A stretch of DNA of 64,000 nucleotides from a bacterium (GTDB lineage Bacteria > Patescibacteriota > Saccharimonadia > Saccharimonadales > AWTP1-31): the NCBI GenBank assembly GCA_030426125.1, contig JAUHZB010000001.1, positions 222,583-286,582 of the forward strand, written 5' to 3'. A program made the translations under genes and the position numbers. This document shows, in pieces, positions 8,251 to 52,923 of this stretch. How positions within the stretch are numbered: position 1 is the stretch's first letter; every line of letters begins with the position of its first letter. The notes below the pieces were generated by a model. The model ran no database searches. It saw nothing but the letters and a program-made list of their open reading frames with translations, and was not told the origin of the DNA.

Positions 8251-8416
8251 CAATACTTTAACTGGTCGCACACTTATTTATTCTTAAGCTTATTTTATCA
8301 TGCTTAAGGATGTCTCGGGATTGGAAGAACGGAGTGAGCGAATTAGATTAAGTAAATAGAGTTGACTCAATAAGCACAACGGCTATATAATGTAATCACT
8401 TCTTAAAAACAAAAAA

Positions 8417-15152: not shown

Positions 15153-17980
15153 TATTTTGTCGTCCCTCTGTTCGCTAGTTTATATAATAGCATAAGCATC
15201 GAAGACGTAACAATCATAGTAATACCTATAAATAGAATATTTGTTGTCTGACTTTTTTCGGTATTTTGTATTTGGTTAGCATTTAAATTAGTTTGTTCGT
15301 TATTGCCCGGAATCTTTTTTGAAATATCTTCATCTTTTTCTTTTGCTTGGTCAATAACTGTATTGTCGTTGGCAAATGAACCATTGTCTCTAGCCTTTTC
15401 TGTTGATATTTCTGGGCCTGAGCTGCTATCAACTTCATTTATTGTCGTGTTCGTATAAACTTTGGAGCCATCAGAGCGTCTCAAGCCATATTCACTATCT
15501 CCTGCGACTTGTCCAATATATTCTGCGAGAACTAGCTTGCCGCTACCAATCTCTTGTCTAAACATAGCGTCATCACTTACTACATACCCAGTACCATTTT
15601 TCGGTAGAACACTTCCTCCAGGGAAAGTGAAATTTGTACCATCTATTGTCCAGTTAGATATATCAACTGCAATATTATTAGGATTACTTAGTTTAATATA
15701 GTTATAATTTGCGTTTTGTGAAGCCGTGTATGAAATATCTTCTATATCAATAATCACATTGTTTAATTGGGCTGCAGGAATTAGACCTCTGCTAACATAG
15801 TTCGTTAGGAACCGATCTCTTAGTTTGTCTAGGCTGAAGCGCAGTATGGAAAACCTATTTGCAGGAGTGTACGGTTCATAAGTGGCATGTTGGAATGGTA
15901 AGTCTTCCAGTCGCAAGCCTCCACCAGTTTTCTGGTCCAGAATAGATTGCATTACAAGTGGGTTATCAGGATCTTGTCCGACCACATCAGTTATGTAATC
16001 TCTGACTGGTTGAATATTTGTATCATATTCATAGGTATACCACTTTTGATAATCCAAATCTGATGCAGTTAAACTTGTGGCTGCTTCATCGTCTAGCCAT
16101 TCTTGGATAGTATTATTAGCATAAATTTCATCAACTAATGTCCTTACCCTTCGCTTATACATTTCTTGTAATTCTGGATCATCCCATATAGCAGTGAATA
16201 CATTTCGATCATCTACAGAAATTGATGGAACAACATCATAAGGGTTAATCAGGTCATCGTATCCCTGCGGGGGAACCCCAAGACCAATATTGTGCACACT
16301 CATTGTTAGGTCAAGGTCCCAAGGTAAGAATGACCAACGTTCACGATCACCAGCATTGTAAATACTGAATGTATTTGATGCCAGACTCCAATCGTGACTT
16401 CTTGCAACAGACTGAGCTGCCATATAATTTATTATGTTTGTAATTTCAATATTATCTCTTAAATAATCTAACTTAGCTCCTCCTGATAGTGAGCTTAGTG
16501 CACTCTTTAAATTTTGTAGTCTGGTTGTATCATTATTATCTGGCTGCTTTTTTTCAAACTCATCTTCTATAATTTCTGCATCCTTATATGCTGGATTTCT
16601 GTCCAGCCACTCTTTTTCATATTTTTCAGCTAATGTATAGGCTCCTTCAAATTCGCCATTTTTTTGCAGTTGAATTTTTTTAACTTGTGGCACTGGGAAC
16701 CCAGCGTGTTTAAAAATCCTCCATGATAACAGTGAAACTATATACTCATTATTCGGAAAATCTGTATTTAGATGAAACTCGTTAAGCGGGTATTCTAATA
16801 CCCCTGGTATAGCAAGCTTGTGGTTTTTCGGCAATTTAATTTTGAAAGGTAATTTAGGAAAAGTCCTAGAGTATTCACCCTTAATTCTTACCTCAGAATT
16901 ATCTATAACCTGATTGCCGTAGACAATAACACAGGAAAAATAGTCTTCCTGATCATCTGGTGTGGCGATCAGATCAGTATAGTCACTTTCGGAAATAAAC
17001 CACTCCAGTATTGGGGTAGATCCAACTTCTTGAGATGGGTCTACCACCACATAACCCTGGTAATTAATGCTATCATCATTGCCAGGTAGTCCAGCTGTGT
17101 CTGAGCCTGGACTGGTGGCTTCTACTCTATACCTCACCAGTGAGCCAGCTGTTTGGGTTGGTATTTGTCCGCTGTAGATGCCGTCACTAGCGGTTTGGTC
17201 TCCATTGTTCCCGCTGTCATTCATGGCTATTGTTTCTTCATCTTCAAACATGACTTTGTACACAAGATTTACTGTGTCAACATTGCTCGCTTGTACGGTT
17301 ATGGTTGGAGTGTCGGTTGGTTGGATAGCCTCTAGACTACTTGTGTTTTTTGGTGTACTTAGACTAGACAGTTCTGGCAGGTCAGCAGAGGAGAGAGAGT
17401 TTTCAGTGTTTGGTGTACCACCATCACTAAGGCTGGCTCCCCATGAAGTGGATAGACTGTTATCGAGACTGGAGTCTTTGAGTTCTAATGAAGGACCTAG
17501 TTCATCTGGTGTGACTGGCCAGGGAGATACGTCAAGATAGTCAACACTATCTACGAGGGTATTGGAAGAATCTCGTAGTTCTATGTTTTCACCACCATTG
17601 CTGAGGTTGCCACTGTACTCTGCTAGGACTGTTTGACTGTAGGTTGTAGTGGTTTGAGATGCAGAGGGTGAAACTAAAACGAAGTCATTGGCACCGATAC
17701 TCATACCGGAAGAAAAACATAAACTAATGCCGTCAGTGAAACACCAACCATTTAGGTCTATTGGTGAGCCAGTAGTATTGTATAGTTCTAGAAATTCATC
17801 GTCTTCGTTATCTGAAGATGGATGGTACATAAGTTCATTAATGACTACATCACCACTAGCTGCGGAGGCGAGGTTAGGGTTAATGGTTATGTGCAAAAGA
17901 GAACAGACTAGGCTAGCTAGCAATACAATTACTATAGTTAGTTGATTGTATTTAATTGTCAGAAATAAACGACTTTGCAT
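15152..17980 (-). CDS. CotH-family (atypical kinase) protein with N- and C-terminal lamin-tail domains and a C-terminal TM anchor
   Basis: Signal peptide. LTD motif VVINELMYHPSSDNEDDEFLELYNTTGSPIDLNGWCF. CotH-type motif RWSFLPWDLDLTMS. A second LTD-like segment (YIKLSNPNNIAVDISNWTIDGTNFTFPGG). C-terminal hydrophobic helix plus KLANRGTTK. Confidence 0.75.
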   Translation of the reverse strand: MQSRLFLTIKYNQLTIVIVLLASLVCSLLHITINPNLASAASGDVVINELMYHPSSDNEDDEFLELYNTTGSPIDLNGWCFTDGISLCFSSGMSIGANDFVLVSPSASQTTTTYSQTVLAEYSGNLSNGGENIELRDSSNTLVDSVDYLDVSPWPVTPDELGPSLELKDSSLDNSLSTSWGASLSDGGTPNTENSLSSADLPELSSLSTPKNTSSLEAIQPTDTPTITVQASNVDTVNLVYKVMFEDEETIAMNDSGNNGDQTASDGIYSGQIPTQTAGSLVRYRVEATSPGSDTAGLPGNDDSINYQGYVVVDPSQEVGSTPILEWFISESDYTDLIATPDDQEDYFSCVIVYGNQVIDNSEVRIKGEYSRTFPKLPFKIKLPKNHKLAIPGVLEYPLNEFHLNTDFPNNEYIVSLLSWRIFKHAGFPVPQVKKIQLQKNGEFEGAYTLAEKYEKEWLDRNPAYKDAEIIEDEFEKKQPDNNDTTRLQNLKSALSSLSGGAKLDYLRDNIEITNIINYMAAQSVARSHDWSLASNTFSIYNAGDRERWSFLPWDLDLTMSVHNIGLGVPPQGYDDLINPYDVVPSISVDDRNVFTAIWDDPELQEMYKRRVRTLVDEIYANNTIQEWLDDEAATSLTASDLDYQKWYTYEYDTNIQPVRDYITDVVGQDPDNPLVMQSILDQKTGGGLRLEDLPFQHATYEPYTPANRFSILRFSLDKLRDRFLTNYVSRGLIPAAQLNNVIIDIEDISYTASQNANYNYIKLSNPNNIAVDISNWTIDGTNFTFPGGSVLPKNGTGYVVSDDAMFRQEIGSGKLVLAEYIGQVAGDSEYGLRRSDGSKVYTNTTINEVDSSSGPEISTEKARDNGSFANDNTVIDQAKEKDEDISKKIPGNNEQTNLNANQIQNTEKSQTTNILFIGITMIVTSSMLMLLYKLANRGTTK

Positions 17981-18064: not shown

Positions 18065-19588
18065 CTATATTTCGTTAAGTACTGTAATCCTAGCACCCAG
18101 ACTATTGAGCCTTTTAGCCAGGTCTTCATAACCCCGGTTAATAGTGTAAACATTTCGAAGTTTAGATTTTCCGCTAGCAGCTAACATACCAATTAGCAGT
18201 AAACTAGCTGGGCGCAGTGCCGGTGGGCAAACTACATCAGCGGCCGTAAATTTTGTTTTTCCTTTGATGTAAATCCGATGTGGGTCAACTAGTTCAATGT
18301 TGGCGCCGATCTTGGTAAGTTCGGTGTAATAGATAGCGCGGTTTTCGAACATCCAATCATGGATAAATGTTCGGCCTTTGCTAACGGCAGCAATTGGCAC
18401 AAAGTAGGGGATTGAATCGGGGTTAATGCCGGGCCAGAGGTTGGGATGAATCTTATCCTTAGGTGCTTGTAGTTTACCGCGGTGTTTTTCTATTGTCAGA
18501 TCTACTAGATCGACCACGCCATTAGTAGCTTTGTATTTTTTCGTTGCTTTAAACTTTAAGCCAATTACTTCTAGTTTATATAATTCAAGCGCTATCCAAT
18601 CTATTGGAACGCGCTTAATAGTGATTGATGAGTTGGTAGCCACGGCAGCTGATATAAAGAACATCGCCTCGATTGGATCTTCGGTGGGAGCGAAACTAAC
18701 ATTCTTTTTAATGTTGCTGGAGCCTTCAACGGTTAACACTGAAGAGCCAATACCCTGAATTTTAACTCCGAGTTTCTGGAGGAATAGGCAGAGGTCTTGG
18801 ACCATGTAATCAGCGCTGGCATTGTGAATAATTGTTGTTCCGTTGCTTCTAGCTGCGGCCATTAGGGCATTGTTGGTTACAGTATTTCCAGCTTCGTATA
18901 GTACGATCCGCTCAGTCGGTAGTTTACGGTTGACTTTGACGTCATAGAATCCGGTGTGAGCTTTGACATTAACACCGAAGTTTTGTAGAGCTAGTAGATG
19001 GGGCTCAACGGTACGTTCGCCTAGCTTGCAACCACCAGCAAAAGGTATCTTAAAGTGTTTGTGCTCATGCAGTAAAGGTCCGAGGAACATTAGCACGCTT
19101 CTTGTGGCTTTGGCTGAGCTGACATTAATTTTACTTAGATCAAGTTGGGCTGGGCGGTTAATTTCGATGTCGTTATTAGCTAGCCACTTTATTTTTACAC
19201 CGATACTTTCTAGTACTTCAATAATGCGGTGAACTTCTTCAATTTTAGGGAAGGCCTTAAACCTAGTAACTCCATGGTTAAGTAAGCTGGCACACAGTAG
19301 GGCTACGGCTGCATTCTTGCTGGTTTTTAGAGTGATCTCGCCTTTTAGTTCACGACCACCTTCAATTTGTAGATTTAGACCACGATTACCAACCTGAATG
19401 ATGGGCTTATTGAGAACATCACTAATTCTAGCTAAAGTTTCTAGGCTTAAATTTTGGTTACCGTGCTCAATACGGTTAACCGCCGACTGGCTAGTGTTTA
19501 GTTGTTTAGCGAAACTAGCCTGCGTTAGGCCGCGCTCGTGACGTAGCTTATAGATTAAATTTCCGATCTTTTGGTTAGTGGAGGCCAT
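18065..19588 (-). CDS. murA: XRE-family HTH domain fused to UDP-N-acetylglucosamine 1-carboxyvinyltransferase (MurA)
   Basis: The first ~66 aa form an HTH (RGLTQASFAKQLNTSQSAVNRIEHG). The remainder is colinear with MurA: KGEITLKTSKNAA, the catalytic Cys loop FAGGCKLGERTV, and C-terminal INRGYEDLAKRLNSLGA. Confidence 0.85.
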   Translation of the reverse strand: MASTNQKIGNLIYKLRHERGLTQASFAKQLNTSQSAVNRIEHGNQNLSLETLARISDVLNKPIIQVGNRGLNLQIEGGRELKGEITLKTSKNAAVALLCASLLNHGVTRFKAFPKIEEVHRIIEVLESIGVKIKWLANNDIEINRPAQLDLSKINVSSAKATRSVLMFLGPLLHEHKHFKIPFAGGCKLGERTVEPHLLALQNFGVNVKAHTGFYDVKVNRKLPTERIVLYEAGNTVTNNALMAAARSNGTTIIHNASADYMVQDLCLFLQKLGVKIQGIGSSVLTVEGSSNIKKNVSFAPTEDPIEAMFFISAAVATNSSITIKRVPIDWIALELYKLEVIGLKFKATKKYKATNGVVDLVDLTIEKHRGKLQAPKDKIHPNLWPGINPDSIPYFVPIAAVSKGRTFIHDWMFENRAIYYTELTKIGANIELVDPHRIYIKGKTKFTAADVVCPPALRPASLLLIGMLAASGKSKLRNVYTINRGYEDLAKRLNSLGARITVLNEI

Positions 19589-19766: not shown

Positions 19767-21041
19767 ATGCAGGATAAGCAAATTCGAGATTTAATTGATG
19801 CTGAGAAAAAACGTCAAGCTGAAGGATTAGAGCTAATTCCAAGTGAAAACTACGTTAGTGGTGATGTACTTACCGCGATGGGCAGTGTTTTTACTAATAA
19901 GTACTCAGAAGGTTATCCCGGAAAACGCTACTACGGCGGACAAGAAAATACAGATATTTTAGAGAACCTAGCAATTGAAAGAGCAAAGGAGCTGTTTGGT
20001 GCTGACCATGCCAACGTCCAGCCCCATTCCGGGGCACCAGCCAATATTGCTGTTTACCAAGCCTGGTTAGAGCCAGGCGATACTGTAATGGCCATGAAGC
20101 TGGATCATGGTGGTCATTTGACTCACGGTCATCCAATTACAAGTAGCGCAAAATTATACAACTTTGTACGTTATGGCATCAAAGACGTAGAGACTGGGGA
20201 GATAGATTATGAACAGATGCGCTCAGTTGCCCTGAAAGAAAAGCCGAAGATAATCCTGGCTGGTTTTAGTGGTTATCCAAGGAGTCTAGATTACCAAAAG
20301 TTTAAAGACATTGCCGATGAATGCGGCGCCGTACTAATGGCCGATATGGCCCATATAGCCGGACTTATCGCTGGAAAGGTACTACCAAATCCGCTAGATT
20401 TTGGCTTCCATATTATGACCACTACTACCCATAAAACACTTCGAGGTCCACGTGGTGGAATGGTGCTTAGTCAAGGTAAGGTCAGCAATCCGCTTCGGTC
20501 ACTGGAAAAAACAGTCGAGAATCTACCGACATTAATTGACAGAGAGATATTCCCCGGATTCCAGGGTGGCCCACATATGCACACGATTGCTGCTAAAGCT
20601 GTTTCTTTCCGTGAAGCGTTGCAACCAGAGTTTAAGACATACGCACGACAGATACTAGATAATGCCTCCAGGCTGGCCGATGAACTGCAAAAGCAAGGCT
20701 TTAAGTTGGTAACTAATGGCACCGACAACCATATGATAATGATCGACATGCCGGCTAGCTTTAAGGACGTTAATGGCCGCCAGGCTCAAGATATATTAGA
20801 CAAGGTAGGCCTAAATGCTAACTGCAACGCTATTCCTGAAGATAAGCTTCCACCCTATAGGCCTAGCGGACTGCGTATTGGAACCCCAGCCATTACCACT
20901 AGAGGGCTAAAAGAAAAAGACATGGTGTTAGTGGCTAAGTGGATGAAGCAGGCAATCCAGGACCGCAAAGACGACGCTAAGTTAGCTAGCCTAGCAGCAG
21001 AAATTAAGCAGTTTGCATTGAAGTTTCCGCTACCTAGCTAG
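19767..21041 (+). CDS. glyA: Serine hydroxymethyltransferase
   Basis: LELIPSENYVS, YSEGYPGKRYYGG and the PLP-Lys region TTTTHKTLRGPRGG. The ATG at 19767 is preceded by GGAAGGGG. The track start at 19683 adds a non-homologous extension. Confidence 0.95.
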   Translation: MQDKQIRDLIDAEKKRQAEGLELIPSENYVSGDVLTAMGSVFTNKYSEGYPGKRYYGGQENTDILENLAIERAKELFGADHANVQPHSGAPANIAVYQAWLEPGDTVMAMKLDHGGHLTHGHPITSSAKLYNFVRYGIKDVETGEIDYEQMRSVALKEKPKIILAGFSGYPRSLDYQKFKDIADECGAVLMADMAHIAGLIAGKVLPNPLDFGFHIMTTTTHKTLRGPRGGMVLSQGKVSNPLRSLEKTVENLPTLIDREIFPGFQGGPHMHTIAAKAVSFREALQPEFKTYARQILDNASRLADELQKQGFKLVTNGTDNHMIMIDMPASFKDVNGRQAQDILDKVGLNANCNAIPEDKLPPYRPSGLRIGTPAITTRGLKEKDMVLVAKWMKQAIQDRKDDAKLASLAAEIKQFALKFPLPS

Positions 21042-22072
21042 TCGATTAGCTCTGGCTCTTGAATTAGATTAACCCCGAACTCGTTAAAAACTTTTTTCTG
21101 TATTTTATCTCTAAACTTCATTAGATCTTTAGTGCTTTTGGCTTTTTCGTTTACTAGCACTAGGGGTTGCAGATGCCAAGTTGCCATGCCGGTGTACTTG
21201 TCGTGCTTGTCTTTAAAGCCTACTTGTTCAATCAGCCAAGCCGCAGATAATTTATAGCCGTCTTTGACTTTCCAGGCTGGGATGTCTTCGGGATTATCGA
21301 AGTTCTTTCGAATACGGTAGTAGCTGGTGTTGCTAACAATCGGGTTAGCGAAGAAAGAGCCGTTGTTGGCGACCTTGTCAGGATCCGGTAATTTACTGCT
21401 TCGTATTGCTATTACTAATTCTCTAATAACCTGAGGTGTGAATTTTGTAATACCGAGTTTGTCAATGTAGCGTTGCAGAGAGTTATAAAAGGGAGGTTTA
21501 GGGTTGGCGCTATTTAAGCAGAAAGTGACACTGACTATTATAAAACGACCTTTATCTTTGTCTTTAAAGCGGCTACTGCGGTAGCCGAACTTGCAACTGT
21601 CGTTGCTTAGGTTTACGAATTGCTCAGACTGGCGATCATAGACTTCAATTGATTCAATGGTGTCGCTAACTTCCTGGCCATACGCCCCAACGTTTTGGAT
21701 TGGAGTAGCTCCAGCAGTCCCCGGGATTAAGGACAAAGCTTCAATGCCATGAAGTTCTTTTTCGGTTGATGCTTTAACGACTTTATCCCACTGTTCACCA
21801 GCCCCGACTGTTAAAAAGATTTCCTCTTGGTTGGCTTTGCGAAACTTAATACCCGGTATTTTATTTACTAGTACTAAACCATCAAAGCCTTTATCTCCCC
21901 ATATGATATTACTGCCACCACCTATAGTAATTACTTCTAAGCCTTGTTCTTTAGCCCAATCTAAATAGTTCGGAATATCCGACTTTTCGTTAATATTAGC
22001 TAGGAATTTAGCCTTACCGCCTAAGCGCATAGTGGAGTATTTAGCTAGGTCAACATTTTTCCGAATGTACAT
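21038..22072 (-). CDS. murB: UDP-N-acetylenolpyruvoylglucosamine reductase
   Basis: N-terminal YSTMRLGGKAKF and FAD-binding IGGGSNI motifs; length is typical of MurB. Confidence 0.85.
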   Translation of the reverse strand: MYIRKNVDLAKYSTMRLGGKAKFLANINEKSDIPNYLDWAKEQGLEVITIGGGSNIIWGDKGFDGLVLVNKIPGIKFRKANQEEIFLTVGAGEQWDKVVKASTEKELHGIEALSLIPGTAGATPIQNVGAYGQEVSDTIESIEVYDRQSEQFVNLSNDSCKFGYRSSRFKDKDKGRFIIVSVTFCLNSANPKPPFYNSLQRYIDKLGITKFTPQVIRELVIAIRSSKLPDPDKVANNGSFFANPIVSNTSYYRIRKNFDNPEDIPAWKVKDGYKLSAAWLIEQVGFKDKHDKYTGMATWHLQPLVLVNEKAKSTKDLMKFRDKIQKKVFNEFGVNLIQEPELID

Positions 22073-24685: not shown

Positions 24686-26308
24686 ATGTCTCGGTTAAAT
24701 CCCAAAGGGGTAATTACTTGGCTTAAAGGCTTAAATAGACGAACTATAGTTATATTTGCTATTGCTGTTGTTGGTCTGATAACTCTTCTAGGTGTGTCGG
24801 CCAACTCAGCTGGTCTTAGTATTGAGCCCGAGGATGGTACAGGCGCTAGTTCACTCAGGCAAAGTAGTTCTTCGGCCAGTAATGGTGAGTATATCCAATT
24901 TACCGAAGCTCAGCCAGGCGAGGGTTTAGATTTTCCAGCCAATAGCGTAAGTCAGCAATCTTCAGTAAGTCAGTGGGGAATAACTTGGTCTTTCGATAAA
25001 CCGTACAGTGTCGGTAAATATGCTAATGGCGATTGGTGGGTGGTTGGACCAATTACTCTCAGTGGCATATCTCCAGCACAAGGCAATGGTACAAATGGTG
25101 CTAATATTAACCCCACCAAAGGTCAGGTTGGTTATGACAAAGATATAGGAACTTTCCAAAGTCTTAGTTTTCCGCGAACCGTACAACCCGGTAGCTCTAT
25201 AGTTAAAGGTATAAGCCGTCCTGGAGGTCCATTTCTAAGCGACACTTCACACCGAGGTGAACTTCAGACGGCAGCGGTACTGACAGTAGTATCAGAGCCA
25301 CCACCAAAAAACGGTGCTATTGCTTTTAGGCCGGCCTATTTTGGATCTAATAAAAAGCAGTATTTAACAACTGATCTTAGAGTAAATTTATTACCTGATA
25401 TTGATCCACCACCTGCTCATAAGCGTGAACCAACTCAGTATGGCTATAGCTATTACGTGCGGGATTTAGAGTACACTGCTAACCGTTTCCAACGTCTTCA
25501 GTTAGATCATGCCACTGGCGACGAGCTCAATAGACGTACTCACCCAGTGGATAACATGCGAGACTACGGCGGTAGATTCGCTGTCGATATCAACGATGCG
25601 GTGATGCGGTTGATGCTAGATGATCCAATGTCAGAAAAAGCTCAGACCATTATTAACCTCGTTCAATACGGGATAGATTTAAACGAAATGTTCAAAGCAG
25701 GGGCCTACATTTGCGCAGATAGCGCCTATAACTGTGGTGGGCATGGTGGAGGTAGAGGTCTAGCCTTGTTGTTCGCAGCAACCCTATTAAACGCCAGTGA
25801 TATAAAGAATACACTAGATGTTAAGCAGGATGGGATACCTGAGAATTATACTCTGAATTACTTTAATGCACAGGTACCAGTATATGGAGATAAAGCCTGT
25901 TCGGAGTCTGAATATTGGGGCCGTTACAATAGCGGCACAGCTTCAGGTGCAAAAACTTGTCGAGATCCTTACGGATGGATTGATGGTGGTTGGTCGCCTG
26001 GAGCATCTTACCAGGGGGTAGTAACTCCTAATTGGCGGGGTACAGCTGCATTTATGTATTTGGTTCCAGAGTCACAGAATTTTTGGCCTAGCACTCAGCG
26101 GGATAAGTTACTTCAATATATGGATAGAGCAACAGATTTTGGAGCTTGGACTTTACCGGATCCAACAAACAGAAGACCAGAATACGCAGCTTATCATGGT
26201 AGGATTTTATACATTAATAGTAACGCCTATATTAGTCCATTAACAGAATCACTGTGGATAGATCAGAATTTGAGTCAGAGAATTACGACTGATTGGGCGA
26301 ATTTGTAA
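24686..26308 (+). CDS. Secreted protein (540 aa) with the shared N-terminal EPExG...ASxGxY(I/V)xF module
   Basis: Signal anchor RRTIVIFAIAVVGLITLLGVSA, then LSIEPEDGTGASSLRQSSSSASNGEYIQF. The rest is unrecognised. TATAAT lies 6 nt upstream of the ATG. Confidence 0.7.
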   Translation: MSRLNPKGVITWLKGLNRRTIVIFAIAVVGLITLLGVSANSAGLSIEPEDGTGASSLRQSSSSASNGEYIQFTEAQPGEGLDFPANSVSQQSSVSQWGITWSFDKPYSVGKYANGDWWVVGPITLSGISPAQGNGTNGANINPTKGQVGYDKDIGTFQSLSFPRTVQPGSSIVKGISRPGGPFLSDTSHRGELQTAAVLTVVSEPPPKNGAIAFRPAYFGSNKKQYLTTDLRVNLLPDIDPPPAHKREPTQYGYSYYVRDLEYTANRFQRLQLDHATGDELNRRTHPVDNMRDYGGRFAVDINDAVMRLMLDDPMSEKAQTIINLVQYGIDLNEMFKAGAYICADSAYNCGGHGGGRGLALLFAATLLNASDIKNTLDVKQDGIPENYTLNYFNAQVPVYGDKACSESEYWGRYNSGTASGAKTCRDPYGWIDGGWSPGASYQGVVTPNWRGTAAFMYLVPESQNFWPSTQRDKLLQYMDRATDFGAWTLPDPTNRRPEYAAYHGRILYINSNAYISPLTESLWIDQNLSQRITTDWANL

Positions 26309-31776: not shown

Positions 31777-32040
31777 TTATTTCCTATAAATTTCACGTCT
31801 GTGTTGAACATGCAATATGATAATTATATCTTCTTTAACATCAAAAAGGACGCGGTATGAGCCTACTCTAAATCTGTATTGTGCATCGGCAGGTTTTGTA
31901 AGTGCCGACGCAAAACTTATTGGATCGTCTTGGTTAATAAACCATTCTAGTTTTGTCTTAAGTCGTTTTTGTACTTGTTTTGGTAGTTTCTGGATATCTT
32001 TAACAGCTTGCTTCTTGTATGCCAGATTAAAATGGGGCAC
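31777..32040 (-). CDS. RelE/ParE-family type II toxin
   Basis: 87 aa with the pattern YRFRVGSYRVLFDVKEDIIIILHVQHRREIYR. Its start overlaps the antitoxin stop. Confidence 0.8.
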   Translation of the reverse strand: MPHFNLAYKKQAVKDIQKLPKQVQKRLKTKLEWFINQDDPISFASALTKPADAQYRFRVGSYRVLFDVKEDIIIILHVQHRREIYRK

Positions 32041-32282
32041 TATAGGTCCCCAAAGACATCTTCATGACTAAAATAGTCTTTGCTCTCACGTGCTTCCTTA
32101 ATGCGGGCTAAATAGGCAGGGTCGCTGGTTGCTAGAAGATCTTCGAGACGGTCTAGGTCAATAATAGCTCGCTCCTTTTTGCCTCTACGTGTAACAATTA
32201 GAATGTCTTCAGTGTTAACTGCGTCAAGCGCATCAGCGAGTCCCTTCCTTAGATCTGACGCAGATATTGTTTTTGAACTCAT
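32040..32282 (-). CDS. Phd/YefM-family antitoxin
   Basis: 80 aa, TISASDLRKGLADALDAVNTEDILIVTRRGK, encoded immediately upstream of the toxin. Confidence 0.75.
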   Translation of the reverse strand: MSSKTISASDLRKGLADALDAVNTEDILIVTRRGKKERAIIDLDRLEDLLATSDPAYLARIKEARESKDYFSHEDVFGDL

Positions 32283-32504: not shown

Positions 32505-33476
32505 ATGAAAGCTATATTTAGAAGAGCTAAGCCAATACTAAAACATAAAAAGGCTAGACCTATTTTAATTATTGCAGTCATAGCCATTCTTGGTGGTCTA
32601 GTAGTTACCTTAACCCAAGCTTCTGGAGTGTTCATTAGTTTAGAGCCAGAGCAAGGAAGTGCTAGTGATACCTCGATGGTTATTGACAATAACTCAGCAT
32701 CTGGCGGAAGGTATGTCCAGTTTAAGCAGGAGGGGTGTTCAGCACAATCAAATTGCACATCGGAGGGTGGTCCTCCGCCGATAAATACAGTAGGAACATC
32801 GGGTAATTTAATTAGTCGATCATGTAGTAATTTAGCGCCCGGAACATACCAGAATATTAATTGTACAGACTCGGTTATTTTGCAAAGCTCGGGTGATTAT
32901 ACTTTCATTAACGTAAAGATGCCTAGTATTAAGAGTCAGGGTGGGGGACCGCTTTTCCCTAGAAGTGGAAAAGTAATACTCGATCATGTAGAATCTGGCG
33001 GTTTATGGTTTGAAAATAATGGTAGTACAGGCGGACAAACCAACTGGACGATCAAGTGGTCTAAGCTATACGGAGGTGTTTGGCAAGCATTACGACCTAA
33101 AGGAGCTGGAAAAATTTATGTTTCAGATTCTTGGTTATTGTCTGATGGTACTCCTCCAGATGGTGCTCACACTGAAGTTCTTCAACAAATGTATGGTTCT
33201 GATGGTCACTACGAACGTGTAGCTTTTTCTCGGCAACCAGTTACCAACAATACCGTAACCGCTGTGCTTACTATGGAAAATGCAAACGATGGTGGCGACA
33301 CTAAATTCATAGATTGCGTTGTTGGTTATTGGAACGGATCTAGATGGGTTCGGGGAGGCGGCAATTATGCGGTATATCCAGGCAAGTCACAATGGATACG
33401 CCCAACCATTTATGCTTCTGAAGCATCGGCGTGGTATCAGCAGCCATCAGTATTGACTGAGCCAACATATAAATAG
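32505..33476 (+). CDS. Secreted protein (323 aa) with the shared N-terminal EPExG...ASGGxYVxF module
   Basis: Signal anchor ARPILIIAVIAILGGLVVTLTQA, then ISLEPEQGSASDTSMVIDNNSASGGRYVQF. Confidence 0.7.
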   Translation: MKAIFRRAKPILKHKKARPILIIAVIAILGGLVVTLTQASGVFISLEPEQGSASDTSMVIDNNSASGGRYVQFKQEGCSAQSNCTSEGGPPPINTVGTSGNLISRSCSNLAPGTYQNINCTDSVILQSSGDYTFINVKMPSIKSQGGGPLFPRSGKVILDHVESGGLWFENNGSTGGQTNWTIKWSKLYGGVWQALRPKGAGKIYVSDSWLLSDGTPPDGAHTEVLQQMYGSDGHYERVAFSRQPVTNNTVTAVLTMENANDGGDTKFIDCVVGYWNGSRWVRGGGNYAVYPGKSQWIRPTIYASEASAWYQQPSVLTEPTYK

Positions 33477-33636
33477 AAGAATGATCATAATATAGTAGGC
33501 AAGATAAACTTATGATACCAATTTGGAGTATTTGATTTCAGCTAATATAAATTCAAGGCACATGTTACAAAGTCTAAGCTTATAATCCTGGGATCAGATT
33601 TACCTTAATGTATAATTACAATTATGATTGTGGTTA

Positions 33637-34875
33637 ATGACAAAGATGAATAAGAAAATCAAACTGACAACTGGCTTTAAAAGATACAATAAAGTTATAG
33701 TTATTGTAATCATTACCTTATTTGGTGTCTATTTTTTATCTTTAACTCAGGCCGCTAGTTCATTTATTAGCCTAGAGCCTGAAAATGGGGTCACTAGCAC
33801 AGCAGAGGAGCTGTCAGACAGTAGCGCTTCTGGAGGGAAGTATGTCAGGTTTGGTGCTGAGAGTGAACCAAACACTTCTGGGCGTGGGCCTACTGGTCAG
33901 TGGCCGGCTGGTTTCCCGGATTACGATACGCCTGCAGATATAACTACTAGTGGAAGTTTAGCTAGTTTGCAAAATGCTCTAAACTCTTTAGGGTCGAGTG
34001 GTGGTGTTATAGAACATCCTGGCGATATTCCGGAAGCCAAACTAGACAGACCTAGTGGACCAGAAATTGTAGTTAGGCCACCACTAGGCAAACGCGCTGA
34101 ATACACCAGCGCCGGTTACCCTATAGCTTCCAATGTATTATTGGCTGGTTGGCAGGCAACAAACCTTACTATTATTGGAGAGCCTGGTGATACTGTCCGG
34201 AATTCTGGCTGGGCTTGGTGCGAGGGTACAAAATACGCTGGCTTAAATGTTTACGGAAACGGATCAGATGTCGAAGCCTTGTACTATGAAATTGTTTATC
34301 GGGAATTCGCAGACGGTGCTTTTAGCGATAGGGCTGGAACCCGTTCAACGAATAATGGTAGAGCAGTAATGACGGTAGTGGGTTCAGTTATTACAGGTTC
34401 TCTTACGCCCAAAACAAAGCCCGATGATCCTAATTGGGACATGCATGCCGATACATTGCAGACCTACTTTAACAGCGGCGGTTTTGGCAAGATAAGTATT
34501 CGAGATTCCGTTATCTGGCCTTCCTATGACAAAATGTACCAGGGATTAAATTCTTCACCGCTAGAACTCGACAATGTTTATACCATTGCACCAAGTTATG
34601 CACCACAAGTCTACAATGGCTCTGATGATATATCAGCGTTTAACAACAACGACGTATATGGTTTGGTGACGACTGGCGCGTCTATTGTTCGAAATTCAAC
34701 TTTTATTGGTGCAAACAATGCAAGTGCGCAACTCCAAATTGGTAATTCAGAATATTATGATTTATTTTCCTATCATAACTACAAAGATCTTGGTGGTAAC
34801 ACTAAGCTTAACTCTATACCCCCACCACCGCCAACACCATCTAGCACTCAGCTAGATACAATTTGGTCTCCATAA
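33637..34875 (+). CDS. Secreted protein (~412 aa) with the shared N-terminal EPExG...ASGGxYVxF module
   Basis: Signal anchor VIVIVIITLFGVYFLSLTQA, then ISLEPENGVTSTAEELSDSSASGGKYVRF. The start is uncertain (TTG 33628, ATG 33637 or ATG 33646). Confidence 0.7.
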   Translation: MTKMNKKIKLTTGFKRYNKVIVIVIITLFGVYFLSLTQAASSFISLEPENGVTSTAEELSDSSASGGKYVRFGAESEPNTSGRGPTGQWPAGFPDYDTPADITTSGSLASLQNALNSLGSSGGVIEHPGDIPEAKLDRPSGPEIVVRPPLGKRAEYTSAGYPIASNVLLAGWQATNLTIIGEPGDTVRNSGWAWCEGTKYAGLNVYGNGSDVEALYYEIVYREFADGAFSDRAGTRSTNNGRAVMTVVGSVITGSLTPKTKPDDPNWDMHADTLQTYFNSGGFGKISIRDSVIWPSYDKMYQGLNSSPLELDNVYTIAPSYAPQVYNGSDDISAFNNNDVYGLVTTGASIVRNSTFIGANNASAQLQIGNSEYYDLFSYHNYKDLGGNTKLNSIPPPPPTPSSTQLDTIWSP

Positions 34876-38783: not shown

Positions 38784-40054
38784 GCTGCAGCCCTCGCTGA
38801 TCTTTCGGTGGTTGTGTAAGCCCCGTCATCTTTTTTCGGGTTAGTTAGGTTTTTAATATTCACAAAGCTTCGGTACATGGCGGTTACTTGGACAGCAGAC
38901 ATAATAAATGAAGTTAGATACATAGTCGGAGAAAGTATAGTTAGCCTGAGTTGTTCTTTTTTGCTGAGGTGTTCGTCCGACCAGATGGCTAGCCAGGTTA
39001 TTAGGCTGAATGCGCTAGCTGCTCCAATGAACAGTATTGGGTTGTTCCCGGTAACTGCTAAATATGTGAAGGTAACAAGAAATATAGGTTCGAGTATCAG
39101 CATAAATTCTGACCAAAGCGAGTAGGGCATTTTTATCCAAGTTAAGAATGGGTTTTGCTTTTTATCGATCGAGAAGAATAAACTTTTATTAAAAAATTGG
39201 GCTTGTAGGCTGCCGTATTTCCATCGATATCTTTGTTTGAAAAGTGACTTATAGGTAGGTACTGGCTCAGTATAAATGACATAATCACTGGCATATTTCA
39301 GTCCACCAGCTTTACCCAGTTTTTTGGTCATACGCATAGACAGCTCAATGTCCTCGGTTTTCATTCGGTCGTCGAATCCGCCAACTTTTTTTAAAACTGA
39401 TGCTCGGTAACTTGCCCCAGCTCCACCGATAATTACTTCACTATTGACTAAAGTGTTAAACTTTTTTGAACGGAAACTTACTAAGTATTCCAGTTTTTGC
39501 ATTAATCCCAGGATAGTGCCATCTTCGTTAATTTTAATATTCGCAGCTACAGCAGAAACGCCAGGGTCAGCAAAATGTTCCACGAGCCTGTGTATCATGT
39601 ATGGGTTCATCTGGCAGTCAGCATCGTAAGCTATAACAATTTCACCAGAGGCTCTTCTCAGACCTGAATTAATGGCCGATCCTCTGCCTCCATTTTTTCG
39701 TTTTGCCACCAGAAAGATCTTTTTTTGGCCACTGTAATCTTTAATGAATTTTCGAACAATTTCTCTAGTTTTATCGGTTGATTTATCATCTGAGACGATT
39801 ATTTCTAAATTCTTATATCTTGATTTAGATAATGTTCTTAGGCAATTCTCAATCGCAACTTCTTCATTGAAAGCCGGAATAATAATACTTACCAGCGGAC
39901 GATAATGTTTTCTTTTGTTTTTAGATATTCTTTTTGGATTCTTTTTTTCACTTAGCATTTCTATGTCGTATAGGCTTGAGCCAATTAACATCAACATTCC
40001 TAGAGCCGTCCCTAGCATTACGCTTACCGTGAATAGTATCATTAAATAAGTCAT
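38780..40054 (-). CDS. Processive family-2 glycosyltransferase (PgaC/IcaA/chitin- or cellulose-synthase-like)
   Basis: SIIIPAFNEE, DDKSTDKT, YDADC (DxD), QRYRWKYG (QxxRW), plus N- and C-terminal TM helices. Confidence 0.85.
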   Translation of the reverse strand: MTYLMILFTVSVMLGTALGMLMLIGSSLYDIEMLSEKKNPKRISKNKRKHYRPLVSIIIPAFNEEVAIENCLRTLSKSRYKNLEIIVSDDKSTDKTREIVRKFIKDYSGQKKIFLVAKRKNGGRGSAINSGLRRASGEIVIAYDADCQMNPYMIHRLVEHFADPGVSAVAANIKINEDGTILGLMQKLEYLVSFRSKKFNTLVNSEVIIGGAGASYRASVLKKVGGFDDRMKTEDIELSMRMTKKLGKAGGLKYASDYVIYTEPVPTYKSLFKQRYRWKYGSLQAQFFNKSLFFSIDKKQNPFLTWIKMPYSLWSEFMLILEPIFLVTFTYLAVTGNNPILFIGAASAFSLITWLAIWSDEHLSKKEQLRLTILSPTMYLTSFIMSAVQVTAMYRSFVNIKNLTNPKKDDGAYTTTERSARAAA

Positions 40055-40626
40055 TACGCTGTTACCTCGATTAGCTCAAAAGTAAACAGTCTGCGTTGCT
40101 CAAACCAGGCTCCGCTACAAGTTTGCACGGTTAATATTGCTGGCCCTTTGTATTCAAATAAAGAGGTGTCATTTGGTTCAACATCTTTTACAGACCTAAG
40201 TATATAGTGGAATACAGAACCTTCTTTAGTGGTGATTGATGCTTTAGTTCCTACTTGCAGGTCGACCATTGGACCAAATACTTCAGGTTTGTTATGGCCG
40301 TATATGAAAGTATTGCCTGATTGGTTATTTGGTTTGGGAGTAATAAGAGCGTGATGTGCAGAGTCTGAACTTAGTGTCCATTCTTGGGTTTCAGGCTTGT
40401 ATACTCCATCTTGAATATCTGTAGATAAGTTAATCTCAGGAATTTGTAGCGACTCAGGGCTGCCTTCTGTGTAGTCGGGCAGTTTTGTGTCGGGCTTTTG
40501 TATCTCAACCTGTTGCACAGAAAAGGCGTCAGCTGCTCTTGGCTTAGGCTTAATAGCGTAAATAACCCCAGTAATTGCTAATATATTAAATACAGCAATT
40601 ACAACCATTATTTTTACTAGACTCAT
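40054..40626 (-). CDS. Sortase family transpeptidase
   Basis: N-terminal TM anchor, His motif FIYGHN, Cys motif LTVQTCSG and the downstream Arg (EQRRL). The stop overlaps the GT2 ATG (TAATG). Confidence 0.85.
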   Translation of the reverse strand: MSLVKIMVVIAVFNILAITGVIYAIKPKPRAADAFSVQQVEIQKPDTKLPDYTEGSPESLQIPEINLSTDIQDGVYKPETQEWTLSSDSAHHALITPKPNNQSGNTFIYGHNKPEVFGPMVDLQVGTKASITTKEGSVFHYILRSVKDVEPNDTSLFEYKGPAILTVQTCSGAWFEQRRLFTFELIEVTA

Positions 40627-48849: not shown

Positions 48850-49344
48850 ATGAAAAAGAAGCTATTAATCGCATCCATCGTAGCATTAATAGTAATCGGG
48901 GCGGGGGTAGGATATTTTGTTTGGAATAACATAAGTAACCAGCCAGCTGAAACTGTAGAACAGTCTACTGACTTGTCGCTAGAAGAAGTTCAGCAAAATG
49001 CCGAAGCTCCACAAAGCTTACTTAAACAAGGCGAGTTTGTTGATGGTGATGCTGTTCATAGTGCATCTGGTACAGCTACAATTGTTAAGACAGATAAACG
49101 AAACGTCCTAAAGTTTGAAAACTTTTCGGTAACCCAAGGACCAGACCTTTTTGTTTATCTTTCACCTAATGAAGCTGGGCAAAACTTAGGTGAATTTGTT
49201 TCACTGGGAAAACTAAAGAATAACAGTGGCGATCAAGTCTATGAATTGCCAGATAACGTTGATCAATACCAGACGGTTGTAATTTGGTGTAGAGCATTTA
49301 ATGTTACTTTCGGTACAGCCTCGCTGGATCAGTTAAATGGTTAA
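48850..49344 (+). CDS. Membrane-anchored DM13 domain protein
   Basis: Signal anchor, then GEFVDGDAVHSASGTATIV...LKFENFSVTQGPDLFVYLS...VVIWCRAFNVTFG, which matches the DM13 pattern. Confidence 0.7.
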   Translation: MKKKLLIASIVALIVIGAGVGYFVWNNISNQPAETVEQSTDLSLEEVQQNAEAPQSLLKQGEFVDGDAVHSASGTATIVKTDKRNVLKFENFSVTQGPDLFVYLSPNEAGQNLGEFVSLGKLKNNSGDQVYELPDNVDQYQTVVIWCRAFNVTFGTASLDQLNG

Positions 49345-49840
49345 GATACAATTCTCTCGTGAGTATGTTAGAGACAGCCTAGATGTACTTAAACAACGTG
49401 GTCTTAAGGCCTTAGTGCTCGGTACCAAAGCAAAATTAAGTGACCAAGAAAAACAATTACTTAGAGATCTAAAAACCGACTATTCCCAGTACAAGTCAGA
49501 TTCGGCCAGGCGCGGTAGCCTAAAGAAAATAGACCCCCTACACAAAGGCAGTGGGCTAGTTTATTTAGTATCCAGTCCTAGTGACAGTAAGTCGTCTCTA
49601 GTGGTGCTAGAGGAAGAAAGCAAAATAACCAATGGTCCAGACCTATGGCTATACTTATCTGACTCTAATAACCCCAGGAAAACTTTAGGAAATTCTATTG
49701 ATCTAGGACTACTAAAAGGCAATAAGGGAGGGCAAGTATATAGGGTCGATAAGCCACTAGCCAAGCTGGATAGCTATAAGTCAGTAATTGTGTATTGTAA
49801 ACAATTTGATGTTTTATTCTCTTACGCTACGCTGGAATAA
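49337..49840 (+). CDS. DM13-like domain protein without a signal peptide
   Basis: The C-terminal half (ITNGPDLWLYLS...VIVYCKQFDVLFSYATL) parallels the DM13 core of the upstream gene. It overlaps that gene by 8 nt. Confidence 0.55.
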   Translation: MVKIQFSREYVRDSLDVLKQRGLKALVLGTKAKLSDQEKQLLRDLKTDYSQYKSDSARRGSLKKIDPLHKGSGLVYLVSSPSDSKSSLVVLEEESKITNGPDLWLYLSDSNNPRKTLGNSIDLGLLKGNKGGQVYRVDKPLAKLDSYKSVIVYCKQFDVLFSYATLE

Positions 49841-51282: not shown

Positions 51283-52923
51283 ATGAGGCTTAAGTTTAAT
51301 CTTGCCAAGATTATAAAAAGAAATCCTAAAACTAGTAGACTGGTGGTTATCGTCGCTTTCGCTGTTATTGGTGCAGCTGTCATTGCATTCTCACGGGCAG
51401 CAACTTCATCAGTTGCTATCCAACCTGAAGATGGTCAGCTATTATCTTGTTTATCGGAAAAAACAGATGATTCTACGGCTTCTGGCAACGGCTATGTACA
51501 GTTCGGTTGCCCGGCAAGTAATGGTGATCTGGTTATTATCTCCCCAGAATCAGAGCTAAGCAGTGTTAAACAAGCCGTAAAAAGTGGCGAGAAAAAACAG
51601 TACTGGGACTACGTAAAATCTAAGGGCTACATTTCTGACCCTCGAACTAGCCATATTCCAAATTGGTCAGGTAACCAGAGCTATACAATTAGATGTGGTA
51701 GTCAGGATATAACCTATACTTTTGATCCAATCACTTATATATCTACCGACCATGCTGATGGTTGTTCGTCTGATGCTCAAGGGCGACATATGCACAACTC
51801 CGGCTTAAATGCTTACACCACGGCCCTAAGGTGGCGTTTTGACGACGACCAAGCAAACGGTAGCCACGCTGTTAATCTAATTAATTCATGGGTAGATAAT
51901 TTTCAGGCAGTATCGACCCAGAGTGGCCCAAATGACATTCGAGATAACCAGGTCAGATTAAACAGTGGCTGGTTTATTGCTTCTTTTACAAAAGCTCTGG
52001 AGATAATATGGGATCATCCCAGCTTTACCCAGCAACGTAAACAACAAACTGCCGATTGGCTTTGGGAAGTATTCTTGGATGAAGACCCAGTGATGCACGA
52101 AAACAACAGTGAGGTCTTAGGCCAGCAACATGCTGGCTGGAATGGTCGAACCGGTTTCTTGCAGGCAAGACTGAATATTGGCTTAGTTATGAAAGCAGCC
52201 GGTCATCAAAATGCGGATCAAGTAATAAGTCAGGTTATTGCAGATTTTGAAAGTGTGATTCCGGAAATCCTCTATTACGGAAAACAACCTTGGCACGAAG
52301 CTTTGGGCCAACCTTGGCCAAAACAACCTTACCGCAAATTGGGTAATAGCTATGCTGGTTGGAATACACCTAACAACCTGAAAGATTATTGGTTCTTCAC
52401 TACTAACTCATCTACACCACCGCCGTATTTTGTTGGTCAAACTCAAGAAACTGGTCGTGACGTTGCCCACAACCAATTAGGTACCGGTTCACTTACTGAG
52501 TCACTGCGAGCTATACGGCTCAATGGCTACGGAGACTGGTTTAAACAGTCTAAGATTGGCGATGTGCTACTGGGACTAGGAGAACAGCACGCTGACTACT
52601 ATAACGAAACCCTCGATGAATTTTGGAGTGGTGGCTATTCCAGCCTGGATAATTTTAAAAACAACGTCTGGGAGCCAGATGAGTGGGATCAGTTTAAATT
52701 CAAGGTACCTTTCTGTGTTTGCGGTGAGGGAGCTGATCATGGTTGGGAGTTCTTAAGGACTGAGCTGAAAAGAAATGGTTATTCAACTCCAGAGCTGGAT
52801 AGAATGGTAACTAGACTTCGGGGGGTAAGCCCGCGAAGTAGCAACAAAGCGGCTGGTTATGCACCGCTAAGAACAGCCAATAACCAAGCTTGGGAGCCAT
52901 TGTTTGCCTTGGACTATCAGTAG
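51283..52923 (+). CDS. Secreted protein (546 aa) with the shared N-terminal module; possibly an alpha/alpha-toroid polysaccharide lyase-like enzyme
   Basis: Signal anchor RLVVIVAFAVIGAAVIAFSRA, then VAIQPEDGQLLSCLSEKTDDSTASGNGYVQF. The lyase idea is only an impression from the Trp/His-rich helical body and is unverified. Confidence 0.6.
   Translation: MRLKFNLAKIIKRNPKTSRLVVIVAFAVIGAAVIAFSRAATSSVAIQPEDGQLLSCLSEKTDDSTASGNGYVQFGCPASNGDLVIISPESELSSVKQAVKSGEKKQYWDYVKSKGYISDPRTSHIPNWSGNQSYTIRCGSQDITYTFDPITYISTDHADGCSSDAQGRHMHNSGLNAYTTALRWRFDDDQANGSHAVNLINSWVDNFQAVSTQSGPNDIRDNQVRLNSGWFIASFTKALEIIWDHPSFTQQRKQQTADWLWEVFLDEDPVMHENNSEVLGQQHAGWNGRTGFLQARLNIGLVMKAAGHQNADQVISQVIADFESVIPEILYYGKQPWHEALGQPWPKQPYRKLGNSYAGWNTPNNLKDYWFFTTNSSTPPPYFVGQTQETGRDVAHNQLGTGSLTESLRAIRLNGYGDWFKQSKIGDVLLGLGEQHADYYNETLDEFWSGGYSSLDNFKNNVWEPDEWDQFKFKVPFCVCGEGADHGWEFLRTELKRNGYSTPELDRMVTRLRGVSPRSSNKAAGYAPLRTANNQAWEPLFALDYQ

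Follow-up and report, generated by a model that had tools for sequence, protein, structure and literature searches.

Four secreted proteins with a common N-terminus

In a 64-kb window of a Saccharimonadales genome (the whole stretch of DNA analyzed, positions 222,583 to 286,582 of contig JAUHZB010000001.1), we examined four open reading frames (ORFs) whose exported products differ in their bodies and begin with the same cassette, a signal peptide followed by a short conserved module. These ORFs begin at 24686, 32505, 33646, and 51283, all on the + strand. They span 24686-26308 (p24686, 540 aa), 32505-33476 (p32505, 323 aa), 33628-34875 (p33628, 415 aa from a TTG codon), and 51283-52923 (p51283, 546 aa). 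The TTG at 33628 is a mechanical ORF start, and the public gene call for p33628 starts at 33646 (MNKK, 409 aa). A preliminary description of this DNA had reported a basic n-region, a hydrophobic anchor, and a shared motif in four proteins, and we found this organization in all four ORFs. Each has a K/R-rich n-region, one hydrophobic stretch, a spacer of 4-5 residues, and then the motif. The hydrophobic stretch ends in VSA in p24686, TQA in p32505 and p33628, and SRA in p51283, and the motif occupies residues 44-72 (p24686), 44-73 (p32505), 41-69 (p33628, counted from the 33646 start), and 44-74 (p51283).

In p24686, the signal peptide (24686-24802, VSA site) precedes the module LSIEPEDG...SASNGEYIQF (24815-24901), the most divergent copy, and a body (24902-26308) with no match in Pfam, NCBIfam, or PDB. 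The signal peptide of p32505 (32505-32621) comprises a basic n-region and an h-region that fits the cassette consensus and ends at TQA, with an AlphaFold2 (AF2) helix at residues 17-36. Its module, ISLEPEQG...SASGGRYVQF (32634-32723), aligns by hhalign to columns 1-33 of a carbohydrate-binding module (CBM) profile and is modeled by AF2 as a hairpin; a linker to about residue 90 and a small beta-helix-like body follow (32724-33476), as judged from AF2, Foldseek, and module-free homologs. The same kinds of evidence apply to p33628, in which the signal peptide (33646-33753) and the module ISLEPENG...SASGGKYVRF (33766-33852) are followed by a short linker and a right-handed parallel beta-helix body, from GRGPTGQWP onward (33853-34875). 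In p51283, the signal peptide (51283-51399, SRA site) precedes the module VAIQPEDG...STASGNGYVQF (51412-51504), with a predicted mature front-half peptide of ATSSVAIQPEDG...YVQFG, and a body (51505-52923) that weakly resembles alginate lyases (Pfam Alginate_lyase E 7.6e-4, under the gathering score).

The resemblance among the four ORFs is far beyond chance. All-against-all BLASTP confined their similarity to the first ~75-110 residues (E 2e-6 to 4e-13), and the bodies are unrelated, where the earlier description had called them mostly unrelated. A strict ASGG-type regular expression occurred exactly four times in the six-frame translation of the window. When window ORFs were scored with a module hidden Markov model (HMM) built from unrelated database sequences, the four proteins reached 30.6 (p24686), 46.6 (p32505), 54.3 (p33628), and 48.6 bits (p51283), and the next-best ORF reached 6.9 bits. 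Because other exported proteins in the window (8417, 12978, 15152, 37092, and 48850) lack the module, it marks a subset of secreted proteins rather than every signal peptide.

Nucleotide identity among the four cassettes was at most ~0.7 per 10-codon block, and their upstream regions are unrelated. Together, these observations rule out recent gene conversion among them. Judged by this divergence, the four cassettes are old; since they have drifted apart at the nucleotide level, selection on the protein would maintain their similarity.

The module is widespread on unrelated enzymes

To place these proteins in a broader context, we used HMMER with an eight-sequence module profile to search 1.84 billion cluster representatives (clusters at 50% identity), which yielded 346 representatives at E<=1e-3. 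The best 148 of the 346 were re-analyzed and fell into two classes. Class A (n = 122) comprises proteins with a single full-length match (profile 1-38) behind a basic n-region and one hydrophobic helix. Class B (n = 26) comprises proteins with several partial matches (profile ~9-35) spaced ~145 residues apart, which correspond to tandem CBM_35, CBM_6, or GH115_C domains in Pfam. The class A match began within the first 110 residues in 121 of 122 proteins, with a median of 40. The sole outlier (P0098) is a read-through of two adjacent genes, one encoding a signal, the back half described below, and a transmembrane helix, and the other encoding a cassette and a GH16 domain. The N-terminal placement noted earlier, and the predicted enrichment of the motif at N-termini, were thus both upheld in an exhaustive search.

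The bodies behind the module are diverse and, as previously suspected, mostly glycan-active. Among 89 class A proteins annotated with Pfam, we found GH5 (10), GH16 (10), Beta_helix (10), GH26 (6), and apiosidase-like domains (4), in addition to GH42, GDSL esterases, metallophosphatases, GH10, GH114, GH12, GH99, and others. These span TIM barrels, jelly rolls, beta-helices, and SGNH folds. Two of the window bodies also have relatives at other module loci: a p24686-type body lies behind another cassette at L013:3313-5094, and a relative of p51283 (L002:1058-2464) matches Pfam Alginate_lyase at E 3.5e-22.

A scan of species-representative genomes, which used a two-sequence module alignment and narrow patterns, returned eight loci: six in Saccharibacteria metagenome-assembled genomes (MAGs), one labeled Patescibacteria group, and one labeled uncultured bacterium. 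Further metagenome loci span 33-62% G+C, so the lineage range may be wider. The module consensus had no tblastn match in plasmids or phages, and a scan of viral contigs found no relative. Module genes are multi-copy and often in tandem, with four in the 64-kb window, three within the 3 kb of L002, four consecutive on L012, and pairs on L013 and L017. We searched the literature for the motif and for a described Saccharibacteria leader and came across no relevant report. The parent fold is known, but we encountered no description of the truncated N-terminal cassette, its spread, or the orphan back half in Pfam, NCBIfam, or the literature searched.

The module is the start of a CBM35/CBM6-type domain

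To relate the module to complete domains, we used a full CBM profile (A9) of 156 columns that was made from 20 full class B domains. Class A modules together with 40 downstream residues aligned to columns 1-33 only (hhalign 97.8%, E 1e-12), with no further alignment. Individual alignments of the 188 post-signal residues gave the same picture, as only residues 1-32 of p24686 and the first ~36 of p51283 aligned to the CBM profile. Pfam gave no CBM_35 or CBM_6 match in the four proteins even at E<=1, neither family ranked in the top 25 by number of matches (E<=1e-3) in the 89 class A proteins, and no Pfam or NCBIfam model covers the module in the four proteins or the class A set. The earlier reading of the motif as a truncated CBM start, and not a complete domain, is therefore sustained by the restriction to columns 1-33.

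The module is 30-37 residues long, ~1/5 of the CBM profile, and its class A consensus reads [RK]-A-A-T-P-x-V-S-[LIV]-E-[PA]-E-N-G-T-L-S-G-x-A-T-V-x-S-D-S-T-A-S-G-G-K-Y-V-Q-F-G. Conservation is near-absolute at several positions (E12 and S29 in 122/122, A28 and F36 in 120/122, E10 in 116/122, and D25 in 111/122). The E-x-E strand and the D..ASGG..Y-V motif align with the same motif in full CBM domains. In a published CBM35 structure, the structural calcium is bound by Glu21 and Glu23 of beta1, the carbonyl of Thr40, and Asp137 of beta11, and ligand sites are formed by the loops joining the two sheets (PMC9843283). The spacing of 17 between E12 and S29 of the module equals that between Glu23 and Thr40 in that structure. 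By contrast, class A proteins have nothing downstream of the module that corresponds to the C-terminal calcium-ligand Asp, which is invariant in full domains (D131 in A9), and the module ends in a conserved Q-F-G that full CBM domains lack. By homology, then, the module is the front third of a CBM35/CBM6-type beta-sandwich, covering strands beta1-beta3 and the putative E-x-E calcium ligands. The consensus also contains the sequons N-G-T and N-A-T; these are missing from the four modules of the window, which rules out an N-glycosylation tag.

Structural models and body homologs allowed us to ask how the module relates to what follows it. In the AF2 model of p33628, the body is a right-handed parallel beta-helix (pLDDT, the per-residue confidence, ~90) whose Foldseek matches include Pel9A, PL6 lyases, and tailspike depolymerases, and residues 29-77 fall below 50. 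The p32505 model, run with 97 supplied sequences for N-terminal depth, folds residues 57-61 and 69-73 into a beta-hairpin about the SASGG turn (pLDDT 78-88), with lower-confidence segments on either side and values above 90 from residue ~91; in Foldseek, its body weakly matches PL3 lyases, tailspikes, and further beta-helix proteins. Across class A, the 25 residues after the module contain 37% P/T/S compared with 22% in the bodies. Among homologs of the p32505 body, three (P0005-P0007) have a module and then a Pro-rich linker, and two (P0008, P0009) have the body directly after the signal peptide with no module. In Polyangiales and further lineages, other phyla among them, the p33628 body follows N-termini of the lipoprotein type or of different kinds, and its homologs P0013-P0025 lack the module; the only one with a module, a divergent copy, is P0012, which is 49% identical to p33628. 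Because body homologs occur without it, the module is separable from the bodies.

We therefore give next to no credence to a reading of the segment in the four proteins as nothing more than the opening strands of a complete CBM or of the catalytic fold that follows. The sequence of the segment is indeed homologous to the CBM35/6 start, but the hhalign match continues in none of the four, Pfam detects no CBM, AF2 places a linker and then a beta-helix body after the segment in the two proteins modeled, homologs of the bodies do without it, and class A bodies have unrelated folds. The module is neither a working CBM nor part of a catalytic fold. A related alternative is that the calcium-stabilized hairpin alone is a minimal binder that sticks enzymes to a glycan or cell-wall polymer, on the cell's own surface or that of a host. 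The origin in a carbohydrate-binding fold, the retention of three of the four protein calcium ligands, the flexible linker on glycan-active enzymes, and the defined AF2 hairpin would all fit. We nevertheless consider this improbable, as only ~1/5 of the profile is present, most of the CBM35 ligand-site loop region (PMC9843283) is absent, and our searches found no sequence or structural precedent for so small a CBM.

The signal peptide belongs to the cassette

In the preliminary description, the shared module followed a basic n-region and a TM/signal anchor. When class A signal peptides were anchored on E10 to set the register (n = 109), we observed conservation that extends through the signal itself: F-21, A-20, G-17 (77/109), L-13, S/T-10, R/H/K/Q-9, A-8 (97/109), A-7 (89/109), and T/G/S-6. 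These signals have a K/R-rich n-region, an 18-residue h-region (hydrophobic stretch 18-22), and a very short c-region, and the spacing from signal helix to S-x-A|A site to module is fixed across class A. Because the signal is conserved in register with the module and at fixed spacing, the whole ~60-residue N-terminus is one homologous cassette.

By inspection, a basic n-region, an h-region, and small residues at positions -3 and -1 give all four window proteins the features of a Sec-type signal. In its S/T-x-A|A form, the junction agrees with the -3/-1 rule of signal peptidase I, and cleavage probably occurs at S-x-A|A. The hydrophobic stretch of 18-22 residues with its very short c-region, the fixed spacing of helix, site, and module, and the order of module, P/T/S-rich linker, and enzyme could also describe an uncleaved type II membrane anchor; a linker stalk would then hold the enzyme at the surface, with the module next to the membrane as a spacer at its base. 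However, the conserved S/T-x-A|A-T, including A-8 and A-7, suits signal peptidase I and has no obvious reason in an anchor. In addition, a few members (P0102, P0076, and L018) carry twin-arginine signals (TRREFL) that differ in make-up and keep the same S-x-A-A-T junction. An uncleaved anchor is thus decidedly improbable in our view. The twin-arginine members also argue against a cassette role confined to Sec.

One locus captures an exchange of the cassette between genes. Contig L002 opens with 77 nt that recur at 100% identity at nt 2669-2745, and the two modules thus repeated belong to different bodies: nt 2669-2745 is the module of a p33628 ortholog, and nt 1-77 is the module of a gene with another body. 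The identity stops within the Gly codon of the terminal F-G. A database protein (P0071) carries the same 62-residue signal-plus-module unit on the body of L002's first gene. Because SPAdes k-mers usually reach no more than 77 nt, a repeat boundary lies at the end of this contig, 77 nt is a minimum for the length of the repeat itself, and a chimeric gene call could explain P0071. Still, both bodies are joined to the module within L002 itself. The cassette thus moves between genes, with L002 as the one case of exchange.

The exact module repeat at the start of this 3-kb SPAdes contig has a practical consequence. A repeated cassette breaks short-read assemblies, and module genes are therefore probably under-assembled in MAGs.

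Some neighboring proteins in related loci carry the complementary back half

On comparing ORFs across module loci, we observed a recurrent neighbor family, several members of which have, straight after the signal peptide, a domain with the pattern C...G-x-Y-[RK]-[IV]-W-[ST]-R...N-N-S...D...C...G-D...W-x-W-V...G-x-H-T...G-R-E...[VLI]-D...C-x-P-x-G...G-D-N-C. In L015 (L015:8296-9369, residues 49-184), the domain aligns to columns 45-140 of A9 (hhalign 97.7%, E 1.5e-12) and is preceded by ~13 mature residues. The front half (columns 1-33) and the back half (columns 45-140) are therefore complementary, non-overlapping parts of the same profile. An HMM of the back half matched class B proteins directly after each front-half match, and it detected strong orphan copies, lacking any front half, in genes beside module genes. 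Pfam does not recognize the orphan back half. The nearest full-length relatives of both halves are the same class B proteins (P0032, P0054, P0077, and P0132). Together with the inclusion of the signal peptide in the cassette, the presence of this complementary CBM part on neighboring proteins was absent from the preliminary description, and it gives the tethering idea put forward there a concrete form.

In an alignment of 11 orphans and four full domains, the orphans start in the beta3-beta4 loop, and internal orphans abut a preceding Big_7 domain. The C-terminal [VLI]-D Asp is kept in 11/11 orphans. Other parts of the carriers include Big_7, fn3, CarboxypepD_reg, phosphoesterase or purple-acid-phosphatase domains, type I dockerins (L003 and L012 neighbors), and a C-terminal transmembrane helix. 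Three proteins (P0030, P0053, and P0100) hold a cassette and an internal orphan back half in one chain with a single signal, 460-900 residues apart.

To estimate linkage, we took 18 loci (each 5 kb or longer) whose selection had not considered the back half. An orphan back half was present in 7/18 of them (6/17 if the orthologous L015 and L016 are counted once), always on the same strand and at most two genes from a front-half gene. It lies directly downstream in L003, L005, L012, and L022 and upstream in L004, L015, and L016. The back-half HMM found no copy elsewhere in the DNA of the loci surveyed.

Some further features of these loci deserve mention. Type I dockerins, identified by Dockerin_1 matches (E 1e-7 to 6e-7) or by clear duplicated GD.. 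repeats, occur at L003:4945-7083, L012:5981-6673, L008:4999-6006, and L027:13463-15004; the proteins are exported and encoded in Saccharibacteria-like contigs, and two are back-half carriers. The gene that immediately follows the back-half carrier gene encodes a small transmembrane-anchored cupredoxin-like protein (126-196 aa) in six loci (L004:3423-3896, L015:9373-9888, L016:4203-4790, L022:5897-6301, L023:5631-6071, and L028:15117-15530), with a fragment at L025:2-205 and Pfam Cupredoxin_1 matches in L023 and L028. In L004, L015, and L016, this gene separates the back-half gene from the front-half enzyme gene, and the arrangement looks like a conserved gene pair or triad. P0030, in addition to its N-terminal cassette and orphan back half, has a second partial front-half-like match at residues 1579-1607, directly before a CBM60 domain (1626-1710) at its C-terminus.

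A portable cassette and a possible docking role

We are highly confident that the four proteins carry a portable cassette, made of a signal peptide and the front third of a CBM35/6-type sandwich, that occurs on a subset of secreted, mostly glycan-active enzymes. It is also rather likely that the cassette acts as a tag whose role is independent of the body. The structural and positional parts of the preliminary description thus stand, including its expectation that no contiguous CBM would be found in any of the four (hhalign; AF2 on two), while the tag function it offered (targeting, processing, or tethering) stays at the level of a proposal.

Our best explanation joins these points into one scheme. 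The cassette would have spread by duplication and recombination onto many unrelated secreted enzymes in Saccharibacteria and relatives. Each protein would be exported and probably cut at S-x-A|A, so that the mature protein would begin with the module, a short beta-hairpin handle joined to the rest by a flexible linker. This handle may pair with the orphan back part (beta4-beta11) and rebuild the sandwich together with its calcium site, to which the handle would contribute the E-x-E and the back half the Asp. The rebuilt sandwich would then dock the enzyme to a carrier, with the back part located on other exported multi-domain proteins, often encoded next door, or further along the same chain. 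Within this scheme, signal cleavage, calcium binding, and any pairing of front and back are inferred, whereas the homology of the two halves, the truncation, the N-terminal placement, the separability from bodies, the link with carbohydrate-active enzymes, the one exchange, and the gene adjacency are observed. The docking idea arises because the orphan halves are complementary, calcium ligands are kept on both sides, the genes are linked in about one-third of loci, and three proteins hold both halves. Even so, docking between front and back parts is possible rather than probable, and the explanation as one whole statement (cassette identity, spread, and docking) is tentative, falling a little short of an even chance.

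Several observations weigh against docking. None of the window's four front-half genes has a back half anywhere in the 64 kb, and 11/18 sampled loci also lack one, including L010, L026, and L027 (17-21 kb each); a local partner is therefore not obligatory. Front-half genes are numerous in each genome, compared with a single back half per carrier. The 11 orphans share four conserved Cys that their full-length relatives lack, which suggests a self-sufficient, disulfide-stabilized domain that would need no front half. The adjacency of the genes may stem from the origin of the halves, by reciprocal recombination of tandem genes, or from clustering of secreted-enzyme genes. Finally, the hairpin in the p32505 model is of moderate confidence only, the first strand ISLEPE is not modeled as a strand, and the hairpin may dock onto the body.

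Some of these same observations fit the main rival explanation, in which the cassette is a leader only. It would be a standardized signal with an export-compatible early mature region that aids Sec export, processing, or protection of the N-terminus and has no partner, and the orphan back halves would be the other product of an ancestral gene fission, now independent. The putative disulfides gained by the back halves and the four cassettes of the window without a back half are as this explanation would have it. It also agrees with the conservation of signal and module as one unit at fixed spacing, with the swapping of the cassette as a block that includes the signal, and with the first ~20 mature residues, which are acidic or neutral (E10, E12, and D25) with almost no K/R. 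However, the near-invariance of E-x-E, D, ASGG, and V-x-F across 122 clusters (<50% identity) exceeds what charge balance needs. A leader alone also sits poorly with modules that follow Tat-type signals, with calcium-ligand residues kept in both orphan halves, and with three proteins that hold both halves in one chain. Overall, we regard a leader-only role as a serious possibility, though not a probable one.

If docking is nonetheless correct, its broadest form would be a two-part system in which Saccharibacteria and related ultra-small bacteria dock enzymes through a naturally split CBM fold. An N-terminal tag made of the three front strands would be present on dozens of exoenzymes. Carriers of the disulfide-braced back part, with a membrane helix, dockerins, or Ig-like stalks as their anchors, would capture this tag by calcium-locked strand complementation. 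This general statement is doubtful at present. If true, split-CBM docking would amount to a minimal cellulosome-like enzyme display built from one broken domain.

Other features of the window

With 41% G+C and genes for DnaJ, SHMT, MurB, a phosphoketolase with acetate kinase, a sortase, a GT2, an RND/MMPL transporter, and RimK, the window resembles an ordinary Saccharibacteria chromosome; a 71%-identical partial homolog is annotated as Candidatus Saccharibacteria. Pfam annotation of ~47 window ORFs and the back-half HMM identified no dedicated peptidase or partner. The sortase (40054-40626) has no evident link to the four proteins. A mirror-image sorting signal of the PEP or sortase type is not supported, with no exosortase-like gene and no C-terminal sorting signals in the four proteins.

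Just upstream of p32505, the - strand encodes a ParE toxin and PhdYeFM antitoxin pair (31780-32282). A homologous pair (43% and 36% identity) lies at L010:7868-8416, upstream of module gene P0057 on an unrelated contig. The 1723-aa product of 3100-8271 (-) is a multi-pass membrane protein in which DUF285, a GLUG motif, and fn3 occur together with a C-terminal HATPase_c, in predicted domain content an unusual histidine-kinase-like architecture; DUF285 is a Mycoplasma-type surface repeat. The products of 8417-9970 (+) and 12978-15152 (-) are exported, have no Pfam matches, and share a Cys-framed post-signal motif (GGGCTLSDAITATNNDSDEGSC and GNGECDDGSGNCTLRAAIQEANSNSD), presumably reminiscent of a CSLREA-type N-terminal domain. 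The gene at 15152-17980 (-) encodes an exported 942-aa protein with two Lamin Tail Domains and a CotH kinase domain. The gene at 18065-19588 (-), beside MurB (21038-22072), encodes an EPSP-synthase-fold enzyme, probably MurA-like, with an N-terminal HTH_3 DNA-binding domain. Lastly, two tandem overlapping genes at 48850-49840 (+) encode transmembrane-anchored proteins with a DM13 (electron-transfer) domain.

Significance and comparison with known systems

Saccharibacteria-type bacteria rely on secreted enzymes and combine a tiny genome with a life attached to other cells. The cassette marks a large share of the secreted glycan-degrading enzymes and so offers a sequence handle for the exoenzyme repertoire in metagenomes. 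Because Pfam and NCBIfam miss the cassette, its carriers are annotated as hypothetical or by the catalytic domain alone. If the halves reassemble, they would form a natural split-domain docking system. Enzyme display would then have a new principle, protein engineering might gain a compact tag-and-catcher pair, and the fission of one domain into two interacting parts would be unusually clear. We are not aware of any natural split CBM described so far.

The closest relatives in sequence are CBM35 and CBM6 (PF16990 and PF03422; GH115_C-like subgroup), with which the module shares the first ~30 residues (E-x-E strand, loop, D..ASGG, and Y-V strand). It differs from them in covering columns 1-33 of 156, in lacking the C-terminal calcium-ligand Asp and most ligand-site loops, and in being fixed to a signal peptide. 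Among export signals, the YSIRK-G/S and KxYKxGKxW families of Gram-positive bacteria are similar in that a conserved signal marks a subset of surface or secreted proteins with unrelated bodies. Their motif lies inside the signal peptide, whereas in the cassette a further ~37 residues of mature protein are conserved, and these stem from a folded domain.

At the level of organization, the proposed arrangement is analogous to the dockerin-cohesin system of cellulosomes, in which a short module, here probably calcium-dependent, is joined by flexible linkers to varied hydrolases, lyases, and esterases and may have a cognate on carriers. There is no sequence relationship between the two: Dockerin_1 had no match in the four proteins, was not among the families listed for class A, and matched only other proteins (L003 and L012 neighbors and L027). 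The module is also N-terminal, whereas a dockerin is usually C-terminal, and its proposed partner would be the missing part of the same fold, in place of a distinct cohesin fold. In this last respect, the scheme resembles donor-strand complementation in chaperone-usher systems and the engineered SpyTag/SpyCatcher, where strands of one chain complete an incomplete beta-sandwich on another. The pairing proposed here implies no isopeptide chemistry and is suggested by complementary homology and gene adjacency only.

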